20,000 nucleotides of DNA from the IMG/VR virus record IMGVR_UViG_3300025000_000085; one strand, 5' to 3'. The position numbers and the translations under genes are program-made. Shown piece after piece: positions 1,150-16,134 of this stretch. How positions within the stretch are numbered: the first letter of the stretch is position 1; every line of letters begins with the position of its first letter. This stretch comes from an uncultured virus (IMG/VR IMGVR_UViG_3300025000_000085) (lineage: Duplodnaviria; Heunggongvirae; Uroviricota; Caudoviricetes). The notes beneath the pieces are model-generated. The model did not search any database, was not told the origin of the DNA, and saw nothing but the letters and a program-made list of their open reading frames with translations.

Positions 1150-2745
1150 TCAGCCCAGCAGATCGTCGATCGCCGAGTCGCCCTCGCCCAGCCCGCCGGC
1201 CTTGACCGCGGGGGCTGCGCCCGCCGCCGGGAGAGCACGGCCGGCACCGGAGGCCTCGAGCCGCAGGGCCTCGAGCAGGAGCCCGCCCACCTGCGCCTTG
1301 AGGGCGGTGAGGGGATCGGCCGCCTGGCCGCCCGCTCCCTTCTGGGCCCCGAGCACGCCGAAGGGGCCTTCGCCGCCGGCGGGGGCCGAGCTGCTCAGCG
1401 GGCTGCCGAGGTTGAGCGAGCCGCTGAACATGTTGCGCAGCGCCTGCTCCGGGCTGTCCGGGTTGTCGATGGGCGCGGTCTGCGAGGCGGCCGGGCTGTC
1501 GTCGCCGGGGATGGCCAGCCCCGGGATGGCCTTCTGCGCCACGGCCTTCAGTCCGTCCCAGAGGGGCTTGACCGCCTCGGCCACGGCCGCCTTGATGGCG
1601 TCCTGCATCTCGACCTTGGGGTCGGGCGTGCCCTTGAGGGCGGCTTCCATCTTCTGGTACGCTGCCGCCCGCTCCTTGTCCGTCTTCGCGCCCTTCACCG
1701 CCTCCAGAGCCTGGAGGGCGGCCTCGCTCGCCTTCTTTTCGGCCATGGCCTGCTCCTCTTCCTCGCCCTTGGCGGGCGCGCTGCCGGCCGTCGGAATCTC
1801 TTCCCCGTCGGCCGTGGTTTCCGTCTTGCCCTTGCCCGCTTCGCCCTCGGCCTCGCCGGATTCGGTGCCGCCCTCGCCCTCGGACTTCGCATCGATCTTC
1901 GCCTGGATGAAGGCGGGCATCTTGCCCTTCTCGGCGCCTTCGCCGGATGCCTCGGCGGCGATCTCGACGGCGGGAGCTGCGCGGTCCAGGATGCCCTGCA
2001 GCGCGGTGGCTGCGGCCTGCAGGTCCGCCAGGTTGGCCTGGCTCAGCATCTTGCCCGCCTTCTGGGCGACGGACTTCGAAGCCTCGACGTGCTCGGACGG
2101 CAGCACGGGCTCGCCTGCGCTCTTGAGCCCTTCCAGCTGAGCCTGGCCCAGCAGCTGCAGCGCCTTGGCGTGGAACTCGTCGAGGATCTGACGCATCGAC
2201 TCGGCGCGGCGACCATCGAAGTTGCTGCCCCAGCTGGAGGTGACGTCGCACATCGCGTCGTCGAGAGCGTCCCGCAGGTTCCACCACTTCTCCCGCCACT
2301 CCCTGAGGACGAACTTGTCGACCAAGCTCGGCACCGGGGGAGCAATGACGACGGGAGTCGCTGCGGCCCCTTCCTTGACGGCCTCCACCGGCTCGATCCC
2401 GAACGGAGCGTCGTCGCTGCTGCCGGAGAACCAGGACATGAAGCGCTGGAAACGGCCGGCGGCCTTCTGAGCCTGCTCGGGGGTCTGCTGCTCGGACGCT
2501 GCGGCGGCTTCGTTCCTCTCGGCCACGGGGACCTCCTGCTTCGCTGCCCGCTGATCGCCAGCGGGTTCGCTGTCGCCCTTGAGCGCTGCGATGGGGGTGT
2601 GGTTGGATGGCAGCCCCACGGACGAGATCCGCCGCGCCTCATTGACCGGGATCAGGAAGGGGATCTCCCGACGCACACGCACACTGCCGTCGTCCAGCGT
2701 CTCCAGGACCTCGTCGGCTGCCAGCTTGTACGTGCCGGTCTTCAC
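1150..2745 (-). CDS. Capsid scaffold / protease-associated head assembly protein (531 aa)
   Basis: Lies between protease and capsid genes. GTG start overlaps the upstream TGA and follows a GGAGG RBS. Ala/Glu/Gly-rich and helical, with a 'KAGKMLSQANLADL' segment of the kind seen in phage protease-scaffold proteins and an N-terminal 'ISSVGLPSN' resembling prohead-protease 'ISLVxxPAN'. Confidence 0.65.
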   Translation of the reverse strand: MKTGTYKLAADEVLETLDDGSVRVRREIPFLIPVNEARRISSVGLPSNHTPIAALKGDSEPAGDQRAAKQEVPVAERNEAAAASEQQTPEQAQKAAGRFQRFMSWFSGSSDDAPFGIEPVEAVKEGAAATPVVIAPPVPSLVDKFVLREWREKWWNLRDALDDAMCDVTSSWGSNFDGRRAESMRQILDEFHAKALQLLGQAQLEGLKSAGEPVLPSEHVEASKSVAQKAGKMLSQANLADLQAAATALQGILDRAAPAVEIAAEASGEGAEKGKMPAFIQAKIDAKSEGEGGTESGEAEGEAGKGKTETTADGEEIPTAGSAPAKGEEEEQAMAEKKASEAALQALEAVKGAKTDKERAAAYQKMEAALKGTPDPKVEMQDAIKAAVAEAVKPLWDGLKAVAQKAIPGLAIPGDDSPAASQTAPIDNPDSPEQALRNMFSGSLNLGSPLSSSAPAGGEGPFGVLGAQKGAGGQAADPLTALKAQVGGLLLEALRLEASGAGRALPAAGAAPAVKAGGLGEGDSAIDDLLG

Positions 2746-3284
2746 TCGACCTCCTGCAGACGGACCTGGTTGGCGGGGATCACCATCTCGACGTGCTCGA
2801 TGAACACGATCACGTCGGCCTCGAACGAGAAGCCTGTCAGCTTGCCGCTCTTGACCTGCTCCCAGACCGCTGGGTCGTGGTAGCGAAGGGTCACGACCGA
2901 CGCGTCCACGGGGAACAGTGGAGAGGCGATTCGCTCGTCGTTGACGAAGATCTCGACGAGGCGGGCGGCGTCGGTCTGCTTGTCGTGCTGAACGTCATGA
3001 CCAGCCAGCCGGCCCTGCAGCATGTACGCCCGTGCCAGCTCGTAGACGGCCGCTGCCGTCATCGCCTCGCCGTCCACGTCCAGCGTGCCCAGGGAGCCGT
3101 CGAAGGCACGGGCGAGAACCCCCGTGGCCTCCATGCGCTCGACGTTGGACGGAGAGAGCTGCTCGACGGAGAACTTGATCGCCACCTGAGCCGTCTCGGC
3201 CCCGGTGGACGCAGGGGTGCCGGCCGGTCCGGCCCCCTGCTCCACCAGTTGCTCCCAGGCTCTCCGATCACCCATGCCGCTCAT
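2742..3284 (-). CDS. Prohead maturation serine protease, XkdF-like (Peptidase_S78_2)
   Basis: Motifs 'DVDGEAM', 'DVQH' and 'DPAVWEQVKSGKLTGFSFE'. RBS AGGAG precedes the start (ATG 3284 or 3275). Located in the head module. Confidence 0.85.
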   Translation of the reverse strand: MSGMGDRRAWEQLVEQGAGPAGTPASTGAETAQVAIKFSVEQLSPSNVERMEATGVLARAFDGSLGTLDVDGEAMTAAAVYELARAYMLQGRLAGHDVQHDKQTDAARLVEIFVNDERIASPLFPVDASVVTLRYHDPAVWEQVKSGKLTGFSFEADVIVFIEHVEMVIPANQVRLQEVE

Positions 3285-3333
3285 CGCTCCTGCACTCGTT
3301 GCTTGGCCCCAGCACGGGGCCCATCTCAGAGCC

Positions 3334-3371
3334 TCATGGTGAGTGCTAGGAGCGCTAGAGGGGTGCGGTGC
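3334..3371 (-). promoter_or_regulatory. Conserved motif copy 1 (candidate late promoter/operator) upstream of the protease
   Basis: GCACCG-N8-TAGCGCTCCTAGC-N2-TCA-N3-TGA in the 3285-3463 intergenic gap. Second copy at 10657-10693. Confidence 0.55.
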
Positions 3372-3463
3372 AGCGTAGGGGGTGCAGAGAAAGCCGGCGG
3401 TGTGGGCGGGAAGGCGTGCGGGAATGTCTCCTCATCCCCTCAGGCTACGAAGTGCTCGATGCG

Positions 3464-3685
3464 CTACTCCCCGGCGACGAACGGCTCGATGGTGCCCGCC
3501 TCGAAGTCGACGAGGACGACCTTGCCGAGGTAGGGCAGCAGCATCTCGTACGTCACCTGCAGGATGGACTCGCCCGGGGCAACGAGGCTAGGAGGAATTT
3601 CGCAAGGGAAGTCTGGCCGACTGATGCTCAGCTTGCCGTCTGCCCAAGAGCAAGTGCCAACAACCACCTTGGATTTCGTGCTCAT
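3464..3685 (-). CDS. Small hypothetical protein (73 aa), candidate immunity protein for the MuF toxin domain
   Basis: ATGA overlap with the MuF stop and the same lower-GC composition as the MuF C-terminal domain. Function inferred from position only. Confidence 0.55.
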   Translation of the reverse strand: MSTKSKVVVGTCSWADGKLSISRPDFPCEIPPSLVAPGESILQVTYEMLLPYLGKVVLVDFEAGTIEPFVAGE

Positions 3686-5349
3686 CGACCTTTAGGATAG
3701 ACGATGGACTGGACGTGCGCAAGCACGCCGGGGAACGTCTCGCGGAAGGCCTGCTCCCTTGGAGCGTCCATCGACGATTTCCCGCTCACAACAATGTTAT
3801 AGGCCTCGGCGAATGTCTCTTCATTCCCGCCGTCCCCGGACAAGAAGTAGTCAAGTTGAGCCCGTTTTTCTTTCTTCATCGCGCTGATGTCGCTGGCGTA
3901 GGCCTTCATGAAGGGCTTCCTGGCGCTCAGCGGATTCTTGCGCGATAAGTCGAAAGCATGCCCGATCTCATGATGGACGACTCGCTCTACAGGGCGATCG
4001 CCGATCCACTGCCCGGTTGTGAAGTCCTTCCACTTCTCTGCGCAGATCACCTTGTTGTCGTAGAACACGGCCTGGACGTGCTCGAAGGTGGTTCCAGGAA
4101 AGAAGTTGCGTGGGCGCTGCGAGGCCAGCTCGGGCGCATGGTCAACTACCTTCTCTCCGACGACGTACTCGACTTTGGCCGCCTTGAGCCGCCTCCTTAC
4201 ATGATCTGGCGTATTTCGGAAGGCCTCGTGCACCTGCTCCACTGTGCTCTCCTGCACGGGGCTGGCCATCTCGAGCTTGCTCCCTGGGATGACCGGTCGA
4301 GGGACGGATGCTGTTGGAGGCAGGACGGGCGCCGGCGGATAGCTCGGCGTGTACTCGCTCGCCCCCTCCACCCAAGCGTTCGCCGTGCACCGGCATCGCC
4401 CGTGGTACGGCGGCAACACGGTGCCCTGGCTCGCCAGCTCGGCCGCACCCTTGCCCACCACGTCCGCCGGCGGACGCCATGGTGCGACCTGCTTGGCCTC
4501 CTCAGGGCTCCCAGCCTCCATCATGGCGTTGCGCTGGCCCACCACCTGGGCGATCTCGAAGCGCTGCCCGCTCAGGTGGCGGCAGGTCGGGCAGGTGGCC
4601 TCGTCCTCGGGGTTGAGGATCTCGACCACGCTGATGCCGCCCTGGACGAAGGACTCCACGGCGCCGAAGGAGCGCGACCGCACTGCTGCGGCGTTGGCCA
4701 CCACCTCCCAGTAGGACAGCGGCTTCTCGCCGACGAGCTCCGGGCCGAGCTGCGTCTGCAGCACCTTGGCTGCGTCCTTGTAGCTCAGCCCCTGCTGGAC
4801 GACGTGTTCGTCGACGATGCCAGCGATGCGCCCACTGAACTGGTCGGGGTAGGCCTTGCCGACCCAGTACAGGTGGTGGTCGGCGAGCCATCCCTTGGCC
4901 TGCTGGTCGACGGTGTTGAAGGTCACGCTCTGCTTCAGGTCGGCCGCCACGCCGTCTCGGCCAATGCCGTACGCGATGCCAATCTTGTCCTCGTAGAGCG
5001 GCTGCAGCGACTCCTCGAGGCCGTCGAAGCGTCGAGCGATGATGCGCAGCACCGTGCGGGCCATCGCTGGCTTCGTCGATGCGAGCTTGCCGATGGCCTT
5101 GAGTGCCTTGCGGGCCCGGCGGTCCCATTCTTCGGCGCTCAGCGTGGCCAGGTCGTGCTCGACACGGACGAGCTTCCGCAGCCGGGCCTGCTGCTGGTCG
5201 TCGTCCTTCTGGGCCAGCAGGACACAGTCCTCTGCGAGCCGGACACCCTTCTCGGCTGCGGTCTCGAGCGACCACGCCCCGTGGGGGGGCCAGAGGGACG
5301 ATGCCGCAGCGAGGGCGGAGAGTGGGTGGTGAGCGCAGGAGCAGGTCAT
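3682..5349 (-). CDS. MuF/SPP1 gp7-like head morphogenesis protein with C-terminal zinc metallopeptidase (ATLF/PPEP-like) domain
   Basis: Directly downstream of the portal. MuF motifs 'DEATCPTCRHLSG' and 'LPPYHGRCRC', then a Pro-rich linker, then 'HHEIGHAFD...YFLSG...EETFAEAY'. Confidence 0.88.
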   Translation of the reverse strand: MTCSCAHHPLSALAAASSLWPPHGAWSLETAAEKGVRLAEDCVLLAQKDDDQQQARLRKLVRVEHDLATLSAEEWDRRARKALKAIGKLASTKPAMARTVLRIIARRFDGLEESLQPLYEDKIGIAYGIGRDGVAADLKQSVTFNTVDQQAKGWLADHHLYWVGKAYPDQFSGRIAGIVDEHVVQQGLSYKDAAKVLQTQLGPELVGEKPLSYWEVVANAAAVRSRSFGAVESFVQGGISVVEILNPEDEATCPTCRHLSGQRFEIAQVVGQRNAMMEAGSPEEAKQVAPWRPPADVVGKGAAELASQGTVLPPYHGRCRCTANAWVEGASEYTPSYPPAPVLPPTASVPRPVIPGSKLEMASPVQESTVEQVHEAFRNTPDHVRRRLKAAKVEYVVGEKVVDHAPELASQRPRNFFPGTTFEHVQAVFYDNKVICAEKWKDFTTGQWIGDRPVERVVHHEIGHAFDLSRKNPLSARKPFMKAYASDISAMKKEKRAQLDYFLSGDGGNEETFAEAYNIVVSGKSSMDAPREQAFRETFPGVLAHVQSIVYPKGR

Positions 5350-7796
5350 CCCTGCTGCTCCGGGGTGGAGACGCTGCGCTGCTGCAGCGCTACCTTCTGG
5401 ACCAGCACGCCCTTGAGGGCCCTCAGCGCGACCACGATGTCCTGATCGGCATCGAGTTGCGCTGCAGCCAGATCGGGAGCGGCAAAACCTCCGGCTCCCT
5501 TCTCGGCGCGGCCCCGCTCAGTGCCCGGGGTGTTCCCCTCGCTCGAAGCGGACGCAGCCGAAGGCTTGGCCGGTGGCTGCGCCTCCGGCTGCTGTCCGGC
5601 CTGGGCCGTCGGGGCCTGGGGTGCGCCGGAGGTCCCCCCGGGCAACCCGTGCTGCGCTCCGGGCTGCGGCTCCTGGCCGGGGATCTGCCCCATCTTCGCC
5701 GCTGCCAGCGTGAGGTCCCAGGGCTGGTCGCCCCAGTCGCCTTCGATCTGCGGCCAGTCCTCGCCAATCTCCCGAGAAATGAGCTGACGGCTTCGCTCCG
5801 GCGTGTCTGCGCCCAGCTCCTTGGCCAGCCGCAGCCACTTCTCCCGTTGATCGCTGCTCATGATCTTCGGGCCACGCAGGGTCATCTGGTGGAAGCGAAC
5901 GCGCATGGCGTGCCAGAGCGGATCCAGCCAATTCATGGTGCGGCGACGCTCTGGGCCGTAGACTTGGTGGTCGTCCATGATCAGCGAGCTCTCGGCGCTG
6001 GCGAAGCTGTCGTCCTCGCTCTCGCCGAGGGCCTTGTTGCTCAATCCTTTGGTGCCGCGGATGATCTTGCGGGCCCGGTCGATGAAGGGACCGTACATGT
6101 CGTCAGGGATAACCTTGATCTGGTCCACCGAGACGGGGCGCCCCTTGTTCCCCCCGTCCTCGCCCAGATCGATGTCGCCGGGCGGCGTGACCTCGAGGTA
6201 GAGCACCTCGTTGGTCTTCTCTGGGGCGTTCTCCCTTGCCTTGTCGCTGATCTCCTTCTGTCGCTGGATCTGCTTGGCGACGGCGGTGCCGAGTACACTG
6301 ATGATCACCCGAGGGATCTTGGGGCTGACGATCCCAGAATGGACGGCGGCTTCGGCGCCCATCAGCCCGAGCACCAGCTCCTGGTCGCCCCACCACCACG
6401 GGGCGCCGTAGGGACTCCACGTCGGCTCGGGGTTGATGTCGATGAGCAGCTCGTTGGCCCAGACCGAAGGAGGGAAGACCTTCATGTCCGGCCACTGCCC
6501 GAGGGCGTAGTTGCCGATCACGGCGCCGGTGCGGCTGTCGACAATCCGGGGGTCGCCGAACTGCTGGAAGTAGACGTACTGGCCGCGCCGCTCGTGGATG
6601 ATGAGCCGCCACCGGCGGGTCTCGTAGGCCTTCTCGTAGCGAGGCACGGGCTCACCACCGATGAGCAGGTTCTCGGGATCGTCCTCGTCTCCGTCGATGA
6701 GCCACCAGACCGGCGACAGGATTGGAGCGCAGGCGGGACACCAGCGCAGCGTCTCTGCTTCGACGTGGCGCAGCCCGTATGGCCGCCCCCGATAGTCGAC
6801 CTTCGACCAGTCGGGCTGCTGGCCGGACTTGACGGCGTTGAGCGCCCACGCAGCGGCCTGCGCGTAGAGGGCGGCAACGGCAGGATCGGCGGGCGAGGCG
6901 TCCCCTGCCGACTTCATCCCCATGACCGCCGGCACGGAGAGCATCGGGCTGGTTCCGCCGAACAGACCGAACAGCGCTCCGCTGGCGGTGGCCGTTGCGT
7001 CGATGCTCGAATCGGAGCCCAGCGGCAGACGCAGGTGCGGAGGTGGCGTGCGCAGCGCCTCGAGGGCCCGCATGCCGATCCCCTCCCGATCGCGCCGAGC
7101 CTTGCTCAGGCCGGAGACCCAGTCGTCCTCGCTGCCGAACGAGTACTCGAGGAAGCGCTTGAGCAAACGCCGCTCCGCACGCACGGCCTTTTTCAATGCC
7201 TCGGGCGTGCCCTCCTTGACGGTGACCGTCTCCTTGGGATCGTTGGCTCCCTGCATCTCGACGTTGCGGGCGATGGCGTTGCCGCAGCAGGGCAGGATCG
7301 AGCTCCAGGCGTAAATCGAGGACAGCACGCTGAGGTTCTCGACGGAGGCGATCGGCCAGGTGTCGGCCTTGGCCTGCCCGTCTCCCGCCTGCTCCTGCGT
7401 CCAGTAGAAGCCGGAAAACGGATCGGACTCGAGGTAGCGCGACACGCCGCCCCGCACGCTCAGGCTAGCGTCATCCGGCGCTCCCTCCTCGTAGGCGGAC
7501 TTGCGTGCCTCCTCGTGTTGCTGACGCACGCTGGCCAGCTTCTCGCTGCAAGCCTTGTGCGCGGCCTCGACCAGGGAGGGGCTGCCGCCCCCCTCGCCGA
7601 GCAACTCCGCTCCATGGGGCCCGATGATCTCAGCCAGCGTCTTCCCTTTGGCGGCCTCGACGAAGAACATGCTGCCCGGCATGCTCTCGGGGTCGAGCCG
7701 GCCCGGAGCACTCGGGGGGGCCAGCGGATCGTGCACCGTGGCAGCGTTCATGGCCATCAGGGCGCCTGGGGCAGTGGTCGGATGCGAGTCGCTCAT
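5346..7796 (-). CDS. Portal protein (816 aa, extended termini)
   Basis: Sits between TerL and MuF with ATGA overlaps at both ends. Motifs 'DREGIGMRALE', 'GLRHVEAETLR', 'YFQQFGDPR', 'ANELL...SPYGAPWW' and 'SFASAES' resemble PBSX/XkdE-type portals. Confidence 0.85.
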   Translation of the reverse strand: MSDSHPTTAPGALMAMNAATVHDPLAPPSAPGRLDPESMPGSMFFVEAAKGKTLAEIIGPHGAELLGEGGGSPSLVEAAHKACSEKLASVRQQHEEARKSAYEEGAPDDASLSVRGGVSRYLESDPFSGFYWTQEQAGDGQAKADTWPIASVENLSVLSSIYAWSSILPCCGNAIARNVEMQGANDPKETVTVKEGTPEALKKAVRAERRLLKRFLEYSFGSEDDWVSGLSKARRDREGIGMRALEALRTPPPHLRLPLGSDSSIDATATASGALFGLFGGTSPMLSVPAVMGMKSAGDASPADPAVAALYAQAAAWALNAVKSGQQPDWSKVDYRGRPYGLRHVEAETLRWCPACAPILSPVWWLIDGDEDDPENLLIGGEPVPRYEKAYETRRWRLIIHERRGQYVYFQQFGDPRIVDSRTGAVIGNYALGQWPDMKVFPPSVWANELLIDINPEPTWSPYGAPWWWGDQELVLGLMGAEAAVHSGIVSPKIPRVIISVLGTAVAKQIQRQKEISDKARENAPEKTNEVLYLEVTPPGDIDLGEDGGNKGRPVSVDQIKVIPDDMYGPFIDRARKIIRGTKGLSNKALGESEDDSFASAESSLIMDDHQVYGPERRRTMNWLDPLWHAMRVRFHQMTLRGPKIMSSDQREKWLRLAKELGADTPERSRQLISREIGEDWPQIEGDWGDQPWDLTLAAAKMGQIPGQEPQPGAQHGLPGGTSGAPQAPTAQAGQQPEAQPPAKPSAASASSEGNTPGTERGRAEKGAGGFAAPDLAAAQLDADQDIVVALRALKGVLVQKVALQQRSVSTPEQQG

Positions 7797-9970
7797 GCGG
7801 TTGCTCCTGCCCTCGCGGGCCTCTGCTGCAGTGCGGCGAGCTCGGCCTCGAGCTGCGCCTTCATGGCCTCCAGGTTGGCGACGTCGAGCGGCTCGTGGCC
7901 CTTGTCGTTGTTCCCCTGGCGATTGCCGCTGGCTGGCCCATCCCCGGCCGAGTCGTCATCCAGCGCCCCACCCTGCCATCTGGCGTCTGTCGCTCCGCCC
8001 TGCTGCCGGCGGCGGTCCAGGGCCCGCAGGAACTTGCGGACGAGCGTCATGAGGAACCAGAGCATCATCACGCCGTCGTCGTGGCCCTCTTTGCCCCAGC
8101 CCCAGAGCTCGTTGCAGAGCACGTCGACGAGGGCGCGCTGCTCGATGGCCTGCGGATCATCGCCCTCGGGGTAGGGCAGCTCGATCTGGCCATTCTCGAA
8201 GTAGGCGCTGAGCCCGGGGACGCCGTCGCGCAGATGGCGCTTGCGCTTGTCGGTGTTGATGGCCTTGAGCGGCAGGTCGGACGAACTGCGCACGCCGTGG
8301 AAGTAGAGCTCCTTCTGCAATCCGACCGTCTCGACCGCCACCCGGAACATCACGTCGAGCTCATCGGGGCGGATGTAGGCGGCCTCGGCCTCCATTCGCT
8401 GGCGCGTCTGCGCGGGCGTCATGCCGCGCTCGCGGTACAGCCGCAGCACCACGAGGTGACGGGTCTCGGGATGGATGGCCACCGCGCCAGAGAACGTGTA
8501 GTTCGAGTCCGAAGCCTCGGCGTGGTCCTTGTCCCGCACCCAGCCGAAGTCCCATGCCTGGAACACGGCGAGAGGTTCGACGCCCCCCATGGCCCGAACG
8601 ACGTCGTCCCAGGACTCGCAGAAGCGCCGGCCCCGCCCGCGCTCCTTGGCCGCCTTCAGTCCCTCGAGCTTGAACGCTGAGGCCTCGTCGGCCATCGGCT
8701 CGTTCTGGTATTCAGCCTCGAAGGCGACGGGGCCGATGTCCCAGCGCTCCTGCAGCAGCCTGGAAACGGGCCAGCGGGACGGCCAGAGCGACCACTGGAC
8801 GAGCTTCTCGATGTAGCCGAGGGCAGCCTTGCGGCTCGGGACCTTGCGCACATCCTGGTACAGGGCGCGGTAGAGCCGCTTGCGCCAGGTCTTGAAGTGG
8901 TCCTTGCTCAGCAGCCTGGCGAGCATGCTGTCGTGGTGCAGGATCGTGCCCACGACGATGAGCACGCCTGCCTGGTTGTCCAGGCAGGGGATCAGCACCT
9001 TGGTCAGCCAGTCCAGCGTCTTCTGGCGCTGGGCCTCGGTATCCACGAACTCGTCGTTCTCGCCGTCGTCGAGGATCACCAGGTCGGGCCGGTAATCGCC
9101 GTATTTCGCCCCGCGGATCTTCGTTCGGGTGCCGAACACCACCACCCGGATGCCGGTGCTGGTGATGATGTCGACCTCGGTCCACTTGCCGCCCTTCTTC
9201 GGCACCAGGTCGCCGAAGTCGTCCCGAAAGCGCTCGTTGCCCTCCAGTTCCGCCTTCAGCGCAGAGAGGTAGGCCTTCCCCTGCCCCATGGTGTCGGCGC
9301 CGATCATCATGAACCGGGTCAGCTTGTAGGCCACGGCGTGCAGGCGCAGCAGGTCGTAGATCGAGGTTTTCCCGTGCTGGCGGGGGCAGGCGTCGGCGGC
9401 CGAGCGAGGAGCGGCATCCAGTGCCTGCTCTCGAGTCAAGGCCTCCCACTCGTCGGGGGAGTAGTAGACGGACGGCAACCGCTTCGCTGCGTCCTCCTCG
9501 CTCTCGCCCTCCTCCCGGTCGATGTTGGCCCCGGCGGGGATGCCGTCCCGGTCGACGAGAACCTGGACGCTCCTCCAGTCCCGGGTGTCGGTCTGCGGGG
9601 CGCTGGGCAGCGTTCGGTCAACGACCATCTCCACGTAGTCGTTGACGATCTGCTCGTGATGCGGGCCGAACGCGCAGGTGAACTTCTCCGGCAGGTAGTA
9701 GGCGCCGAACCAGAGGGGGTCGCTCAGGCCCCGGGCCTTGCGCTCCTCGCGGTCGAGGACGTCGAGCTCGATCTCCAGATCCTCGACCTCCCTGCTGACG
9801 CTGATCAGCTCCGCAGGGGTGAGGAACTGAGCGGCCTCAGCCCACGCTGCCCGAAGACGAGCGATCTTCGCCGCCAGAGCCTCCCGGAATGACTCCCTGG
9901 ATGCGGGCGGAACGGGCTCGGTCCTCGAGACGGGCGCTGATGGCGTCGATGCGGCTGCCAAGCTGCTCAC
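7793..9970 (-). CDS. terL: Terminase large subunit
   Basis: Walker A 'PRQHGKTS', Walker B 'RPDLVILDDGEND', coupling motif 'VGTILH', 'FEAEYQNEP', and RNase H-like nuclease motifs 'AWDFG', 'AVE', 'HDDGV'. Confidence 0.95.
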   Translation of the reverse strand: MSSLAAASTPSAPVSRTEPVPPASRESFREALAAKIARLRAAWAEAAQFLTPAELISVSREVEDLEIELDVLDREERKARGLSDPLWFGAYYLPEKFTCAFGPHHEQIVNDYVEMVVDRTLPSAPQTDTRDWRSVQVLVDRDGIPAGANIDREEGESEEDAAKRLPSVYYSPDEWEALTREQALDAAPRSAADACPRQHGKTSIYDLLRLHAVAYKLTRFMMIGADTMGQGKAYLSALKAELEGNERFRDDFGDLVPKKGGKWTEVDIITSTGIRVVVFGTRTKIRGAKYGDYRPDLVILDDGENDEFVDTEAQRQKTLDWLTKVLIPCLDNQAGVLIVVGTILHHDSMLARLLSKDHFKTWRKRLYRALYQDVRKVPSRKAALGYIEKLVQWSLWPSRWPVSRLLQERWDIGPVAFEAEYQNEPMADEASAFKLEGLKAAKERGRGRRFCESWDDVVRAMGGVEPLAVFQAWDFGWVRDKDHAEASDSNYTFSGAVAIHPETRHLVVLRLYRERGMTPAQTRQRMEAEAAYIRPDELDVMFRVAVETVGLQKELYFHGVRSSSDLPLKAINTDKRKRHLRDGVPGLSAYFENGQIELPYPEGDDPQAIEQRALVDVLCNELWGWGKEGHDDGVMMLWFLMTLVRKFLRALDRRRQQGGATDARWQGGALDDDSAGDGPASGNRQGNNDKGHEPLDVANLEAMKAQLEAELAALQQRPARAGATA

Positions 9971-10517
9971 GCTGCCCCTCTTCTCCTGAAACGGCGATGC
10001 TGCCGCCGATGATCATGGTGGCCTTGCCACGCAGCAGGCGCTCTGCGTCGACGCAGACCTTGAGCGCTCCGCTGATCTGCTTCACGTCGCCGAACGGAAT
10101 CACCGCCCTCAACGCTGTCGTCAGGTCCCACGAAAGCACGGCCAGCCGGTCGGCCATGGCTCGCGGATCGGCGATGGCCGGGTGATTCTCGTCGGCCGGC
10201 GGTTCCTTGCTCAGCGACTCCAACTCGGCGATGACCTTGAGCGTCGCCTCCTTGAGCTGCTCGCTCGCCTTCTGCTTGGACTGGGGCTGGCTGGTCGCCT
10301 GCGCTTCGGTTTCGCTTTTCGGTTTTCGCCCTTCGGTTTTTGACCCGGATAACGAAGATTCGTCAGGCAGTTGGACGACGACCTTTTCCTCGCTGTTCAC
10401 CCAGGCGTGCACTGTAGACAAAGAACGCACATTCAGTTCATTGGCGATCTGCTGGTAGCTGTTCCCTGCGGCATGCAGCTCTCGTGCCTTCTTCCTGTGG
10501 GTGGGCGGGTAGGCCAT
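9837..10517 (-). CDS. terS: Terminase small subunit (N-terminal HTH)
   Basis: HTH 'GNSYQQIANELNVRSLSTVHAWV', helical core ending 'ERLLRG', and position immediately upstream of terL. RBS GGGGAGG. Confidence 0.75.
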   Translation of the reverse strand: MAYPPTHRKKARELHAAGNSYQQIANELNVRSLSTVHAWVNSEEKVVVQLPDESSLSGSKTEGRKPKSETEAQATSQPQSKQKASEQLKEATLKVIAELESLSKEPPADENHPAIADPRAMADRLAVLSWDLTTALRAVIPFGDVKQISGALKVCVDAERLLRGKATMIIGGSIAVSGEEGQREQLGSRIDAISARLEDRARSARIQGVIPGGSGGEDRSSSGSVG

Positions 10518-10520
10518 CGC

Positions 10521-11225
10521 TCAGCCCTCCCCGCCGGCCACGGACGACCCAACTCTGCGCTGCAGCTGCTCGACCATGTCCTTCAACTCCTCTGGCAGGG
10601 TCCCGATCACGATCACGCAGGCAGCGCCCACCCTCGACCTCGCACCTCCTCCAGCTTCACCCTGACCGCTAGGAGCGCTACGAGGTTCGGTGCCCTCCCG
10701 CATTGGCCAGCCGACGGAGACGGCCCACTCGTCGAGCTCGTGGCGAAGAGCCTCGGCCTCTTGCATCCGCCCGCGCTTGCGCAAGTAGCTGATCCTCGCT
10801 CGGATCTTGTCCGTCTCTTTCCTGCAGCTCATGGAGCAGTAGCGAGGATCGTGCGAGGATCCGCCGCCCCGGCCGCGCTTCTCTGCTCGCTCCCTGGCAT
10901 GGCCGGGACAAGACGGTCGACAGCATCCGCGCGGAGGCCTACTGCTCGGGAGCGCCGTTCCAGGCTGCTGCAGCACCCGCTTCGCCAGTTCGGCCGACAC
11001 GGACACCATGTCCCCGCTCGCAAGGCAGCGCTGTTCGCCGACAGCGCAATGCTTGCAGGCCATCAGGTCCTCCGCCTGCAGCCCCTTGGCCCGGCCCATG
11101 CGCCGATCTACGCAGAGGCGCAGCTGGAGCCGCACCTTCAGTCGCTGGCAGTCGACGAGCATCATGCTGCCCATCTGGACCTGCAGCTGCTGGTCGAGGC
11201 GCCGACGATCATCCGCCACGGTCAC
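10521..11225 (-). CDS. Cys-rich putative Zn-binding protein, possible late-gene regulator
   Basis: GTG at 11225 overlaps the upstream TGA (alternative GTG at 11219). Motifs 'CQRLKVRLQLRLC', 'CKHC', 'CCRPSC' and 'YCSMSC'. The regulator role is inferred from position only. Confidence 0.6.
   Translation of the reverse strand: MTVADDRRRLDQQLQVQMGSMMLVDCQRLKVRLQLRLCVDRRMGRAKGLQAEDLMACKHCAVGEQRCLASGDMVSVSAELAKRVLQQPGTALPSSRPPRGCCRPSCPGHARERAEKRGRGGGSSHDPRYCSMSCRKETDKIRARISYLRKRGRMQEAEALRHELDEWAVSVGWPMREGTEPRSAPSGQGEAGGGARSRVGAACVIVIGTLPEELKDMVEQLQRRVGSSVAGGEG
10657..10693 (-). promoter_or_regulatory. Conserved motif copy 2 (candidate late promoter/operator) upstream of terS
   Basis: GCACCG-N7-TAGCGCTCCTAGC-N2-TCA-N3-TGA, about 140 bp upstream of the terS start. 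Confidence 0.55.
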
Positions 11226-11608
11226 TCCCCTACCGAGAAGTGCCGCCACCCTTCCCGCTCCCGATGGCGCCACACCTCCCGCCAGGGCTCGGGCTTGTCT
11301 TCGAGGGCTCTGGCCTCCTGCTCGAGCCGGATGGCCCGGTAGGCCATGGCTCCGGCGTCCTCCTGCCAGCGCAGCGCCCAGCGGGCCCGCAGCCAGTCGA
11401 GGACGTAGAACCAGCCGAAGCGGAGCAGGCCGAGCTCCTCGAACTGCAGCACGTGCACGGCCTCGTGGCGCAGCAGCCGGTCAGAGGCCTCGACGCCCCC
11501 GCGCACGAAGATGTGCCTGCCGATGGTGACGGCCGCCGGACGGATCACGAGGGACAGCAGCGCGGGCACCCAGCTGTTGAGGTGGAGGATGGGGACGACC
11601 TTACTCAT
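11222..11608 (-). CDS. DUF4157-like (eCIS-core type) HExxH zinc metallopeptidase-like protein
   Basis: 'AAVTIGRHIF...LLRHEAVHVLQ...AYRAIRLEQEAR'. ATG 11608 follows a GGAGGAG RBS. Confidence 0.75.
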   Translation of the reverse strand: MSKVVPILHLNSWVPALLSLVIRPAAVTIGRHIFVRGGVEASDRLLRHEAVHVLQFEELGLLRFGWFYVLDWLRARWALRWQEDAGAMAYRAIRLEQEARALEDKPEPWREVWRHREREGWRHFSVGE

Positions 11609-11709
11609 GCTGCTGCTGCTCCTCCGCCGGCGCACCGCAGCGCTACCGGCAACCAGTCCGCACCCCACCGCTCGAACGGGATGGCAAAGCCTGCAGCTCG
11701 ATCGCTCAC
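11605..11709 (-). CDS. Putative 34-aa microprotein
   Basis: GTGA overlap with the VRR-NUC stop and ATGA overlap with the next start. Reads (M)SDRAAGFAIPFERWGADWLPVALRCAGGGAAAA. Confidence 0.5.
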   Translation of the reverse strand: MSDRAAGFAIPFERWGADWLPVALRCAGGGAAAA

Positions 11710-12749: not shown

Positions 12750-13028
12750 CCGGGATGTACCCCTGTTCCCCTTGTGTACCCCATCTTTTTTGGAGAAGGG
12801 GTACATGTTTTCCTTTGAAATTTCCGGCAGTTATATCCGATGTAACCCTGTACCCCTTCTTTTCCGGAAAAAAGACCCTGCTAGAAGAAACACGAAGAGG
12901 TGAGATGGATGCCTCACGTGCACGCGCGAAAAAGCCAAAAAGAAGGGAAACATGGGGTACATCTCGGTTTTTGCTCCGAAATGATAGGGGTACAACAAGG
13001 GTTACAAAGGGAAACATGGGTTACGCCT
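12750..13028. repeat. AT-rich iteron array, probable replication origin
   Basis: About 12 octamers of type TGT(A/T)(C/A/T)CCC in both orientations, A/T tracts, and the palindrome TTTTCCGGAAAA (12860-12871). Directly downstream of the primase-helicase gene. Confidence 0.75.
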
Positions 13029-13030
13029 CA

Positions 13031-15730
13031 TCAGAAGTACTTGTCCGGCCGGTAGCGATCCCGGCGGCTCTGACCTGGAGAGGGCCCCTGGTCCACATAC
13101 GCTGCCGTCTCCCCCTGCGGCCCCTCGGCAGCGCCATTGCCTGGCGCATCGTCGGGTGGGTGCCAGCACTTGCAGACCTTCCCGTCTTTTCGAGTGCTTT
13201 TCCTGCTCCACCCCTGCCTGCGCAGGATGGCGGTGACGCGGTGGGTGGTGTGCCATCCCTCCTGGGCGGCGTGCTTCTCCTTGATGTGTTCGGTGACGCC
13301 GGAGATCTGCACCAGGTCCCGCCCGTGGATGTACTCGAGCACCTCCTCGGTCCACGGGTCGTACTCCTCGAATTCCTGGGAGGCAGCGATGCGCTGCTGC
13401 TCAGCCTCCGGCGTGAGCCACCAGCGGAAGTCCTGGCCGGCCGAGCTGCGGTAGGCGTGCACGGCCTCGGCCCAGAGCTGGTCCCGGTTGTCTTCGACCC
13501 ACCCCACGTCCACGCTGTCGGCGACCCGGACGCACCAGAAGCGGCGGCTGCCGCTGGGGTCTCTCAAGAACTCGTCGTCGTTGGTCGTGCCGCAAAACAC
13601 GCAGTGCCGTGGCATGGTGACGGTGTTGCGGCCGTAGGAGGGGCGGAAGCGGTCCGTCCTCGAGGTGAGGAAGCTCTTGATGCCCTCGGCGTCGGCGCGC
13701 TTGAAGGCGAAGAGCTCGGCGAACTCGACCATCCAGACATCGGCGAGCAGCTGGTAGGCGTCCTTGAGGTTGGCGGTCAGGTCCACCTTGGAGTCGGAGA
13801 AGTAGACGTCGCCGGCCAGCTTGCGAAACAGGGTGGACTTGCCGGCGCCCTGCTCGCCGACGAGGATCAGGGTCGAGTCCATCTGGCAGCCGGGCTGCAT
13901 CGCCCGAGCGACGGCGCCGACGAGGAACTTCCGGCCGATCTCCCGGTTCAGCGCGGTGTCCTGGGCGCCGGCGCTGCGGACGAGCCAGGCGTCGATGCGC
14001 TGCTCACCGTCCCACGCCAGCCCGTCGAGGTACTGGACGAGGGGGTTTCTGCGGCTCTCCTTGGCCACCTGCTCGATGGTCCGGGCGACCATGTCCATGG
14101 AGAAGTCCACGTCGTAGCAGCGGGAGAGCCACTCCCTGTCGATGTTGTAGTCGTTGTCCTCGACGGGCCGGTCCGAGCCGTCGGCCATGATCCGGTAGGT
14201 CTTCCACTCGAAGTCATTGTACCAGTGGCGGGGCCCGTCCTCGTGGTGCCGGAACAAGCTGGCCAGGTTGTGCACGGTCCGCAGCAGCGTCTGGCCGCCC
14301 TCCGTGACCTTCCAGCGCAGCAGCCTGCCCAGCGTGTCGTCCGCGGCCGCCTTGCGTCGTCGCCGGACGGCCTTGCGCATGTCGCCGATCTGCTGCCGGG
14401 ACAGCTTCGGCCAGCGCTGCTTGATGGCCTCGAGGTAGCTGTCGATCTCGAAGTTCGGCCGCTCGACGAGCAGGTCGAGGATCTCCGGCAGCTGCTGGGC
14501 GACGAGCAGCAGCGGGTCGCTGTCTTCCGGGATCCGCTCGATGCGCTCCCGAATGGCCGCCACGGCATTCGCCGCACCCGGCGTGGCCAGGCTCTCCGCC
14601 CCCCCCTTCCGGTCGTAGCAGCCGGGCTCGAAGCGCTCCCGCAGCTCATGCCAGCCCCAGGTGCAGCTCGAGTGGTGGCACCCGGCGCTGATGGCACCCG
14701 AGGGCAGCTGTTCGATAGAGGCCTCGCCCCGGTCGTGGCCGTCGTCGTAGGGGCAGACGCGGAAGGTCCAGCGCCGGCCCGTGCCGCCCTTCCACGGTTC
14801 CTCGGCGCCGACCATGCCGCCCAGGTGGTCTGCGACCCACGCGGCCAGGTCGAAGTCCGCCGGCGCCGCACCATCTCTGCGCTGCGGAAGACGGGCCGGC
14901 GGACGGACGGGGGCTGCAGCCTGAGGGGCCTCGGCAGCCAGCGCCTCGAGCTTGTGGAGCGGCACCACCTCCGTCTGCTCGGGGGCCTCGAGGATGCCGC
15001 TCATCCGGTGGGGGCGATCCGGGGTACTGTCGCCCTTGCAGGCCAGCGTGCCGTACAGCTTGCAGATCCTGCTGGCGTTGAAGAGCTTCTCGTCGACCTC
15101 GACCGGCGGCGGCCAGACGGCGTCGCCGTGCTTCGCCGCCGAGATCTGATCGGCCGGGTCGGAGAACCTGGCGCCGAGCGCCTTGAGGCTCCGCTCGCAG
15201 AGCAGCAGCGACGCCGGATCGTTGGGCAGGTCGATGCGGTACAGCAGGTGCGCCCCGTTGCCGCTGTCGGCGAACAGGGGCTCGGGCCACCCCTGCTCGC
15301 GCAGCCAGGCCCTCACCGCTTCGGCCCGCTCGAAGGTGGAGGTGCGCTCCTCGTCCGTGGCGCTGATCTCGCTGGGGCGCGCTGCGTCGAAGTCGACGAG
15401 GAGCCAGCGACGCTGCAGCACCAGGTCGTCGAGCGTGGCCGACCCCTTCTCTCCGGCCTTCAGCCGGTTGTGCGCCCGGGAGAGCAGGGCCGGCTTGACC
15501 GGGTTGAGCGAGAAGTAGATCCCCTTGGCGCTGGACAGGCGGTCGAGCGCGGCCGAGACGTCGTCGCCGTTGTCGAAGTAGCCATAGAACTGTCGCACGT
15601 AGCGACTGCCCCGCTCGCACCCTTCGAGCACACGGATCTCGGCGATCATGCCGCCGTCGTAGAGCAGCCGGAGGGCCGTCCGGACCTGCTGGGGGTCGTG
15701 CAGGCGCAGCGGGGAAGTGGATGTGCTCAT
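13031..15730 (-). CDS. Replication protein: AEP-type primase + Zn-binding domain + VapE-family helicase (899 aa)
   Basis: AEP motifs 'LLVDFD' and 'DSGNGAHLLY'; 'CPYDDGH...CHHSSC'; Walker A 'GEQGAGKST', 'VEFAEL', 'GTTN', 'GSRRFW'. Start placed at ATG 15730, which gives an ATGA overlap. Confidence 0.9.
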   Translation of the reverse strand: MSTSTSPLRLHDPQQVRTALRLLYDGGMIAEIRVLEGCERGSRYVRQFYGYFDNGDDVSAALDRLSSAKGIYFSLNPVKPALLSRAHNRLKAGEKGSATLDDLVLQRRWLLVDFDAARPSEISATDEERTSTFERAEAVRAWLREQGWPEPLFADSGNGAHLLYRIDLPNDPASLLLCERSLKALGARFSDPADQISAAKHGDAVWPPPVEVDEKLFNASRICKLYGTLACKGDSTPDRPHRMSGILEAPEQTEVVPLHKLEALAAEAPQAAAPVRPPARLPQRRDGAAPADFDLAAWVADHLGGMVGAEEPWKGGTGRRWTFRVCPYDDGHDRGEASIEQLPSGAISAGCHHSSCTWGWHELRERFEPGCYDRKGGAESLATPGAANAVAAIRERIERIPEDSDPLLLVAQQLPEILDLLVERPNFEIDSYLEAIKQRWPKLSRQQIGDMRKAVRRRRKAAADDTLGRLLRWKVTEGGQTLLRTVHNLASLFRHHEDGPRHWYNDFEWKTYRIMADGSDRPVEDNDYNIDREWLSRCYDVDFSMDMVARTIEQVAKESRRNPLVQYLDGLAWDGEQRIDAWLVRSAGAQDTALNREIGRKFLVGAVARAMQPGCQMDSTLILVGEQGAGKSTLFRKLAGDVYFSDSKVDLTANLKDAYQLLADVWMVEFAELFAFKRADAEGIKSFLTSRTDRFRPSYGRNTVTMPRHCVFCGTTNDDEFLRDPSGSRRFWCVRVADSVDVGWVEDNRDQLWAEAVHAYRSSAGQDFRWWLTPEAEQQRIAASQEFEEYDPWTEEVLEYIHGRDLVQISGVTEHIKEKHAAQEGWHTTHRVTAILRRQGWSRKSTRKDGKVCKCWHPPDDAPGNGAAEGPQGETAAYVDQGPSPGQSRRDRYRPDKYF

Positions 15731-16134
15731 CGTGCAGACATCATTCGCCACGCCCCCCCCACTGCGATCAGGTCGAAGAAGCTCGTCTGCCCCTCGAGGA
15801 CCTCGACCCCCGGAGGCCTGCGTGCGGCCCGCCATCCAGCCCTCGGCCTCGAGGGCTGGATGGGTGAAGGCGCCTCGCCGGCGAGCAGGCTCTCTTGCGC
15901 AACCGGCTGCGCTTCCGGTGGCTGATCCCAGGCGGCGGCTCGGATGAATCCGTTGCTGAGCAGCTCCATGCGACCCCTGCGCCTGCGAGTCGGGCGAGTG
16001 CTCCCGGTCTCCCATGCGCAGATGCTGGCAGCAGGACACGGCCGGCGAGGGCCGAAGAGGGCGCCCAGCTCGGCCTGTGTCAGGCGCCAGGTCAGGCGGT
16101 ACAGGCGCAGCAGCTCCGAGCCGCGGGACCTCAC
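15727..16134 (-). CDS. Cro/CI-type (XRE) HTH protein
   Basis: 'LRLYR..WRLTQAELGALFG...AASICAWETGSTRP'. Start/stop overlaps at both ends. Confidence 0.75.
   Translation of the reverse strand: MRSRGSELLRLYRLTWRLTQAELGALFGPRRPCPAASICAWETGSTRPTRRRRGRMELLSNGFIRAAAWDQPPEAQPVAQESLLAGEAPSPIQPSRPRAGWRAARRPPGVEVLEGQTSFFDLIAVGGAWRMMSAR

Follow-up and report, generated by a model that had tools for sequence, protein, structure and literature searches.

In tailed phages, MuF proteins are associated with the portal inside the head and leave the head with the DNA, as is partly also stated in published work. In citing papers we draw on their text and on part of their supplements. Jamet et al. (2017, PMC5576092) defined the MuF polymorphic toxins and reported that 20% of 191 such proteins carry a metallopeptidase domain. 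The ATLF family (PF07737) appears in their table of MuF toxins, and the term 'ATLF' occurs 32 times in the tables, for instance with prophages of Aeromonas. They also found an open reading frame (ORF) of less than 150 aa located 3' of 89.4% of the 191 genes that encode MuF toxins versus 25.5% of 952 genes that encode a short MuF. Iyer et al. (2017, PMC5512222) read MuF fusions as effectors that are delivered with the DNA and described zincin modules in the injected polyvalent proteins of phages and plasmids. A related terminal toxin domain that resembles anthrax lethal factor, Tox-ALFMPTase, was described together with SuFu-type (Imm-SuFu) immunity proteins (Zhang et al. 2012, PMC3482391). Within the text and supplements covered, MuF fusions of the metallopeptidase class appear only as in-silico entries, for which neither a target nor a tested immunity protein is given.

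We examined a 20,000-nucleotide stretch of DNA (the window) from an uncultured virus of the Caudoviricetes, IMG/VR record IMGVR_UViG_3300025000_000085. On the minus strand, a gene at positions 3682-5349 (stop codon included) encodes a 555-aa protein predicted to join an N-terminal MuF part to a C-terminal zinc peptidase domain. A 73-aa ORF on the same strand (3464-3685) overlaps the stop codon of this fusion gene (ATGA) and is a candidate partner of the peptidase. Like the MuF-ATLF toxins of Jamet et al. (2017, PMC5576092), this locus places the gene for MuF directly behind that for the portal, with an ATLF-type metallopeptidase at the C-terminus of MuF and a small ORF downstream. Because such fusions with small ORFs are already tabulated there, the fusion belongs to a described class. 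The examples in that paper's supplement are prophages of sequenced bacteria, whereas here we have an uncultured phage and a MuF clade that is associated with Myxococcota and is otherwise short. What is new is a conserved family of small partner proteins tied to the peptidase in both phages and Myxococcota; the type of fusion was catalogued in 2017. Jamet et al. give the downstream ORFs by size only, and in the parts of that paper covered we found no conserved partner family for ATLF domains. Likewise, a search of the literature found no description of the small partner, of an ATLF immunity protein or of a phage Pro-Pro endopeptidase (PPEP), and an earlier mention in the figures or further supplements of the key papers is possible.

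The C-terminal domain (residues 365-555, positions 3685-4257, minus strand) is, by sequence and predicted structure, an M34-type zincin peptidase with an intact active site. An exhaustive HMMER search with residues 345-555 returned 718 relatives at E<=1e-3, of which 184 reached E<=1e-10; identity to the top match was 36%. Of the relatives listed, 76 have a length of 340 aa or more; 33 of these passed the curated Pfam cut-off for ATLF (27.4 bits), 46 matched ATLF at E<=1e-3 and 11 passed the cut-off for Phage_Mu_F (29.6 bits). When a profile built from the domain and 74 short relatives was compared with the sequences in the PDB, it matched PPEP-2 (6fpc) with an E of 7.3e-13, PPEP-3 and PPEP-1 with an E of approximately 1e-9 to 1e-8, and lethal factor with an E of 2.4e-4 to 5e-3. 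A word-based search with the C-terminal domain found the identical protein only, and a phmmer search of the PDB with the whole 555-aa protein gave no relevant match. The direct Pfam scores of the protein speak against the family assignments, since 23.4 bits for ATLF and 21.6 bits for Phage_Mu_F are both under the curated cut-offs. For this reason, both assignments rest on the further tests given here.

The predicted structure agrees with the profile search. An AlphaFold2 model of the peptidase domain, built with the alignment of its relatives, had a mean predicted local distance difference test score (pLDDT) of 93.5 and a predicted template modelling score of 0.89. Foldseek found 60 matches to this model in the PDB at E<=1e-3. 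The leading matches were PPEP-2, PPEP-3 and PPEP-1 (E 1e-6 to 1e-4) with template modelling (TM) scores of 0.58-0.65 by query, followed by lethal factor with 0.50-0.52. Alignment with VIA gave Z scores of 15.8 for PPEP-3 (rmsd 3.4, 180 residues aligned), 15.7 for PPEP-1 and 15.4 for PPEP-2, and 13.3 for residues 554-776 of lethal factor. The ESM Atlas's own model of the domain agrees, with a TM score of 0.68 by query to ATLF clusters, and one of its matches is a cluster whose members are viral MuF proteins of 576 aa. Of the two groups, the bacterial Pro-Pro endopeptidases are the closer to the domain and anthrax lethal factor is the more remote. We take M34 to be the MEROPS family number of PPEP-1 (Zmp1), PPEP-2 and PPEP-3.

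The predicted zinc-binding and catalytic motif HEIGH (positions 3958-3972, minus strand) supplies His460, Glu461 and His464. It is followed by a stretch at 3817-3849 (minus strand) that runs from Tyr501 (3847-3849, in YFLSG) through Glu511 (3817-3819, in EETFAEAY). In an alignment of 75 sequences, the columns of these five residues (H116, E117, H120, Y157 and E167 in domain numbering) are invariant or at least 90% conserved. The columns of Tyr501 and Glu511 align with Tyr178 and Glu185 of PPEP-1 in the Y...EE-FAE segment of the family profile. Tyr178 and Glu185 are presumably the downstream tyrosine and the glutamate that serves as third ligand, as in the literature on PPEPs and lethal factor. 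Two residues conserved in the family deviate: PRGW is PRNF, and Thr-Trp in the loop is Thr-Phe. A preliminary description of the window, made from its letters alone, had named both ORFs with their ATGA overlap, the HEIGH, YFLSG, EETFAEAY and LPPYHGRCRC segments and a Pro-rich linker, and had counted 29 G+C in the 60 nucleotides at 3841-3900. All of these are present, and the profile and structure comparisons bear out the fold resembling anthrax lethal factor and PPEPs that it had proposed.

In Bacillota, PPEPs are secreted as stand-alone enzymes and cleave adhesins of the surface. They give the best fold and profile matches to the window's domain and have the same HExxH...Y...E arrangement, and the consensus of the domain's family contains the same PRGW...TW loop region. 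Identity is 13-18%, however, and the domain in the window is fused to a phage head protein and has Phe in place of the consensus loop Trp. The catalytic domain of lethal factor has the same fold (Z about 13) and, by transitive evidence, belongs to the same Pfam family. It is more distant than the PPEPs, and the window's protein contains neither the protective antigen-binding domain nor any other domain of lethal factor and has no link to an animal host. Nothing suggests that the peptidase is a toxin of animals.

The N-terminal 340 residues (positions 4330-5349, minus strand), which end just past LPPYHGRCRC, have the sequence features of a MuF minor head protein. Residues 186-322 match annotated phage head morphogenesis proteins (tblastn, best E 1e-12), and the MuF part matches PHROG families of minor head proteins with an E of 8.3e-7. 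Two of its relatives, P0157 (52% identity) and P0159 (33%), carry PF04233. The P-P-x-H-x-x-C-R motif at the C-terminus of MuF is present, with H316, C319 and R320 invariant in the alignment of relatives. Between the MuF part and the peptidase is a Pro-rich linker (residues 331-364, positions 4258-4359, minus strand). It begins like the tail, rich in Pro and Ala, with which the nearest short relative (P0155) ends, and it contains Pro-Pro-x-Pro. Five of the 12 MuF-peptidase fusions inspected have Pro-rich linkers with Pro-Pro.

Relatives of the peptidase domain are encoded in 44 viral loci, which form 34 clusters at 90% identity; 29 of the clusters have a strong domain match (hidden Markov model (HMM) E<=1e-17). 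In 26 of these 29 the peptidase domain is C-terminal. A search of viral contigs with a degenerate DNA pattern for RHExGHAxD gave mostly noise, with at least four true domains among the 80 loci fetched. Searches for related loci with P0091, P0133 and P0070 yielded matches to the MuF part or nothing, and tblastn with P0080 matched MuF parts only. In 18 clusters, a small ORF starting between -23 and +6 nt from the peptidase stop codon shares a common pattern composed of a hydrophobic strand, an R-A-E-G-D-G-x-h-G-D-A turn, V-x-P-G, G-h-T-Y-E-E-L and then G-x-G. The members of this family (family 1) are 58-86 aa long and are encoded on the same strand within a few bases of the peptidase stop. These 18 clusters match the family-1 HMM by construction, because it was built from them. 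In a six-frame scan of the 44 loci with this HMM (3,848 segments), matches occurred only on the gene strand and only directly behind or inside the peptidase gene. The scan also found four members outside the training set, in L179 (E 3.7e-18), L167 (4.6e-9), L168 (7.5e-19) and L178 (4.9e-13).

Two of these four are natural fusions. In L168 the peptidase domain continues in frame into the partner, which occupies residues 456-515. There, positions 2278-6552 are one open frame of at least 1424 aa that comprises peptidase, partner and an S78 prohead protease domain; because this fusion was seen on one contig only, a sequencing error is possible. In L178 (positions 2857-4984) the architecture is permuted. 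A free 265-aa peptidase is followed by a 96-aa ORF and then by a protein in which the partner forms the N-terminus of the MuF protein (Phage_Mu_F 47.1 bits). Four further clusters have a second kind of partner (family 2) that starts, as in family 1, with Y-G-D-G-h-h-G-D-A and continues into a Cys-rich part. Across the 29 clusters, 22 have a clear family-1 partner, two a weak one (this phage and L183), four a family-2 partner and one (L182) none, so that 28 of the 29 non-redundant viral loci have a small partner behind the peptidase or fused to it. In L184, L185 and L193-L196, more distant zincin-bearing proteins are followed by a third type of small ORF, which starts at -1 nt, encodes an acidic protein of 62 aa and is conserved between loci.

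The partners of the related loci form, at the level of sequence, a conserved family that has no name in Pfam, PHROGs or NCBIfam. Against Pfam, the 18 partners gave two single-member weak matches (E 0.04-0.07) and no meaningful family. None of the 18 matched PHROGs, and NCBIfam matched none of the nine proteins scanned, eight of which were small partners including the 73-aa ORF of the window. The best match of the partner-family profile to sequences in the PDB had an E of 0.24. The Tox-ALFMPTase systems (Zhang et al. 2012, PMC3482391) are alike in having a terminal toxin domain resembling anthrax lethal factor and a neighboring immunity gene; they differ in their delivery, via PVC or type II secretion, and in their SuFu-type immunity proteins, whereas the partners here match no Pfam family meaningfully.

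The same pairing occurs in cellular genomes. A search with P0154 found relatives of the peptidase in 16 of 401 sampled Myxococcota genomes at E<=1e-6 and, together with an earlier search of five genomes, gave 18 loci (L197-L214). All 18 proteins pass the Pfam cut-off for ATLF, seven contain PG_binding_1 and none contains MuF. The next ORF is conserved in 15 of the 18 loci. In 14 of them it encodes 63-69 aa (subfamily 1b) and in 13 it starts at -4 nt; the fifteenth partner is a 114-aa form bearing a signal sequence. The HMM of the phage family recognizes 14 of the 15 by way of the common N-terminal motif, and a count from the printed sequences found a C-terminal V-P-P-[WF] motif on 12 of the 15. 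Two partners, those of the viral locus L183 and of L205, have N-termini resembling signal or lipoprotein sequences. The chromosomal pairs of ATLF peptidase and partner look like the exported effector-immunity pairs of predatory bacteria. Thus, in phages and in Myxococcota, this peptidase family is linked near-universally to a small partner.

We then asked how well the 73-aa ORF of the window fits this family. It starts at -4 nt from the peptidase stop, and its position, size and overlap are those of the partners. Compared with the 18-sequence HMM it scored 11.7 bits (E 7.9e-6 for one sequence), a weak and short match that nevertheless ranked first of 6,678 sequences, which included natural ORF segments 50-130 aa long (1,677) and shuffled versions of the 73-aa ORF (5,000); the best decoy scored 7.2 bits. 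A 22-sequence HMM gave 9.6 bits, again weak and short and again in first place. Alignment of the 73-aa ORF to two profiles of the family with hhalign returned P values of 1.1e-4 and 2.2e-4 and probabilities of 57% and 45%. An AlphaFold2 model on the joint alignment contained five strands and one helix with a pLDDT of 75.5. Foldseek found no PDB match to this model at E<=1e-3, and the best VIA Z score was 2.8. In the ESM Atlas the protein had no feature match at >=0.9, and its structural look-alikes were only small and beta-rich. Several observations weigh against membership. The match to the family spans just 16-30 residues (V-A-P-G-E-S...T-Y-E-M-L). The R-A-E-G-x-G-x-x-G-D-A motif at the N-terminus of families 1, 1b and 2 is missing, with A-D-G alone kept. 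The HMM of the myxobacterial subfamily scored 0.5 bits on the ORF (rank 316), and a search of 5.8 billion proteins for homologues returned only the protein itself. On balance, we consider the 73-aa ORF to be probably a divergent member of the partner family.

Comparison with related phages suggests how the window came by this pair. The nearest MuF proteins are P0155 (72-75% identity, 339 aa), P0156 (67-71%, 318 aa) and P0157 (51-52%, 342 aa), all of which stop just past the MuF motif and have no peptidase domain. P0155 and P0156 are from short contigs with their ends out of view; locus L003 is unambiguous. In all 26 related loci fetched from viral, metagenome and genome collections, MuF is short. 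In L003, where MuF is approximately 52% identical, the short MuF gene overlaps a gene for an XkdF-like protease, which is followed by scaffold and capsid genes, and both the peptidase domain and the 73-aa ORF are missing. Because similarity to the XkdF-like protease of L003 resumes at window position 3341, the insertion would start at approximately residue 340-365 of the fusion protein and end at a position within 3342-3463. This similarity reaches 57 nt (3285-3341) upstream of the first ATG, GTG or TTG (3284) of the window's XkdF-like gene. When the protease ORF of L003 is read from its first start codon, its product has additional N-terminal residues with no counterpart in the window, and the insertion may have clipped the start of the window's gene.

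Base composition also sets this region apart, as the preliminary description had noted. The G+C content is 0.591 over 3464-4257 compared with 0.688 for the whole window, and a value as low as this occurs in only 10 of the 1,921 sliding windows of equal size. The lowest of these starts at 3421 and overlaps the region, and the lowest clear of it has 0.596 at approximately 12.7 kb. Within the peptidase domain the G+C content is 0.581. At third codon positions (GC3) it is 0.743 for the peptidase domain and 0.808 for the 73-aa ORF, and seven other coding stretches measured have 0.86-0.95. The 73-aa frame has a coding pattern of GC3 > GC1 > GC2. Since both parts are missing in L003 and the lowered GC3 is common to both, the peptidase domain and the small ORF are best described, from sequence comparison, as a predicted insertion acquired as one cassette. 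More distant MuF proteins (31-33% identity) carry other C-terminal domains, PF15644 and PF03496. Eight related genome loci (L021-L028) and the fragment L029 are in Myxococcales/Archangium/Myxococcus assemblies, which suggests a myxobacterial host for the phage.

Our preferred reading, to which we assign a probability of roughly 60%, is that the peptidase is carried to the next host, where it cuts a host protein, and that the 73-aa protein keeps it latent in the producing cell. According to this proposal, MuF gained an intact M34 peptidase domain and a small gene as a single cassette. As MuF sits in the head by the portal and leaves with the DNA, the peptidase attached to it would enter the next host cell with the phage DNA and, at an early stage of the infection, would cut a host protein. 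Through the overlap of stop and start codons, the 73-aa protein would be produced along with the peptidase, and the small protein would bind the peptidase in the producing cell and hold it latent, as an immunity or inhibitor protein does. Binding of the partner to the peptidase is the most likely relation between the two. By analogy, a role as inhibitor or immunity protein fits the pattern of polymorphic toxins and the exported myxobacterial pairs; the arrangement in L178 fits a tether equally. A more specific form of the proposal, which we offer tentatively, is that the partners, approximately 60-85 aa long and encoded at -4 to +1 nt, are specific inhibitors or immunity factors of the ATLF/PPEP-like peptidases of phages and Myxococcota and block the active-site cleft with their conserved acidic Gly-Asp turn or with a Pro-rich pseudo-substrate, for which the V-P-P-[WF] end of the myxobacterial partners would be a candidate. 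In phages they would also govern the loading of the peptidase onto MuF, and the 73-aa ORF, which contains I-P-P, would be a divergent member.

Other roles for the small protein have to be weighed against latency. It could dock the peptidase to the MuF/portal complex, as an adaptor or folding helper, or stem from an unrelated small cargo gene that travels with the domain, which we regard as possible but rather doubtful. An adaptor role suits L178, in which MuF carries the partner and the peptidase is a separate protein, as with a tether, and the two natural fusions in L168 and L178 are as easily read as adaptors or cis-regulatory domains as they are as inhibitors. The 73-aa ORF itself, with neither the hallmark motif nor homologues, also leaves room for it. 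In addition, a late operon is an odd site for an immunity gene meant to protect lysogens. On the other hand, the partners in Myxococcota follow cell-encoded peptidases that are not of phage origin, 7 of 18 with PG_binding_1 and 0 of 18 with MuF, and since these peptidases carry no MuF, a partner acting as a MuF tether would serve no purpose in them. N-termini resembling signal or lipoprotein sequences, which the partners of L183 and L205 have, are frequent among immunity proteins directed at exported toxins. The preliminary description had called the 73-aa ORF a coupled candidate immunity gene. It does occupy the position of the conserved partners, but it is without the motif that is most conserved among them. 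The same description had expected variable C-termini among homologous MuF proteins. The domain is indeed an add-on that relatives do not have; close relatives, however, show presence or absence, and alternative toxin domains appear only at 31-33% identity. Its observations are confirmed and its interpretation is partly supported.

The peptidase, for its part, might process phage proteins rather than attack the host. Zincin peptidases of injected polyvalent proteins were proposed to process the multidomain polypeptide (Iyer et al. 2017, PMC5512222), and the peptidase here could cut its own polypeptide, for example at the Pro-rich linker, or other phage proteins and so release or mature cargo in the head or after ejection. 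As in those proteins, the zincin is on a virion protein thought to be injected, and relatives of the domain do occur in multi-enzyme proteins. Examples are MuF with an ADP-ribosyltransferase and the peptidase (L166, L172), MuF with the peptidase and a type IB topoisomerase (L167), the peptidase-partner-S78 frame of L168, and portal-MuF-peptidase fusions (L156, P0033). The linker of the window's protein contains Pro-Pro-x-Pro, and the solved relatives cut between prolines. Yet the peptidase is the sole cargo of the 555-aa protein, which has no other cargo domain to release, and for this reason a pure processing role is less natural here. Furthermore, close relatives assemble heads without the domain, and the neighboring gene codes for an XkdF-like prohead protease distinct from the fusion protein. 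We consider processing unlikely, and because no more than 5 of the 12 fusions inspected have a Pro-Pro linker, cleavage of the linker by the peptidase itself is kept as a minor variant. The fusions of family members to LysM (5 of 76), to PG_binding_1 (7 of 18 in Myxococcota) and to SH3_3 or a cell-wall hydrolase (Atlas clusters) raise the thought that the peptidase acts at entry on proteins of the envelope or cell wall, as secreted PPEPs do, rather than in the cytoplasm. This is improbable for a domain that is fused to an internal head protein and in which we found no signal peptide or wall-binding domain. Least probable is that the domain is a decaying, inactive passenger. The low-GC foreign DNA and the changes from PRGW to PRNF and from Trp to Phe after Thr would suit a passenger, but all five catalytic and metal-binding positions have been kept, the ORF is uninterrupted, the structure is predicted with very high confidence and the frame can still be recognized from its GC3. 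Delivery of the peptidase to the next host, with the small protein holding it latent beforehand, thus remains the reading that we prefer.

The cassette lies within a head-packaging module on the minus strand with the order TerL, an 816-aa gene, MuF, the 73-aa ORF, an XkdF-like protease, a scaffold-like gene and capsid. A small-terminase-like gene (9837-10517) is followed by that for the large terminase, TerL (7793-9970; PHROG 38, E 2.2e-55). The 816-aa gene (5346-7796) has no family match and is taken as the portal gene from its position between TerL and MuF; the fusion gene overlaps it by 4 nt. On the 3' side of the cassette, a 179-nt spacer (3285-3463) separates it from the gene for the XkdF-like prohead protease (2742-3284), which is followed by the scaffold-like gene (1150-2745) and the capsid gene (3-1100). 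No promoter-like or terminator-like sites were found at 3000-4000.

Outside this module, a 148-aa ORF with an HEAVH motif (11222-11668, minus strand) scored 24.3 bits for Pfam eCIS_core (PF13699; cut-off 22) and also matched a PHROG family labelled 'protease'. It is a second small zincin-like gene of the phage that is unrelated to the peptidase domain. A 1049-aa primase/helicase with a VapE-like domain is encoded at 13031-16180 on the minus strand (Pfam E 3.3e-79; PHROG DNA helicase E 4.7e-95). The sequence GGGGTACA occurs in six exact copies, in both orientations, at 12756-12994 and nowhere else in the window, with a chance expectation of 0.14. The copies sit in the lowest-GC island of the window (0.48 at 12751-13050) and are surrounded by longer imperfect direct and inverted repeats. 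This array beside replication genes looks like an iteron or operator array. A third dip in G+C content (0.577 at 10201-10500) is near the end of the small-terminase-like gene.

Among the routes predicted for tailed phages to bring enzymes into a new host, MuF fusions are the commonest. In this phage and its close relatives there is a natural experiment, in that they differ by exactly the cassette of peptidase and small ORF. The existence of a partner family makes the hypothesis of a protease and its inhibitor directly testable with two small recombinant proteins. If the hypothesis is true, the partners would be the first family of protein inhibitors for M34 peptidases and would provide a handle on what virion-borne proteases do.

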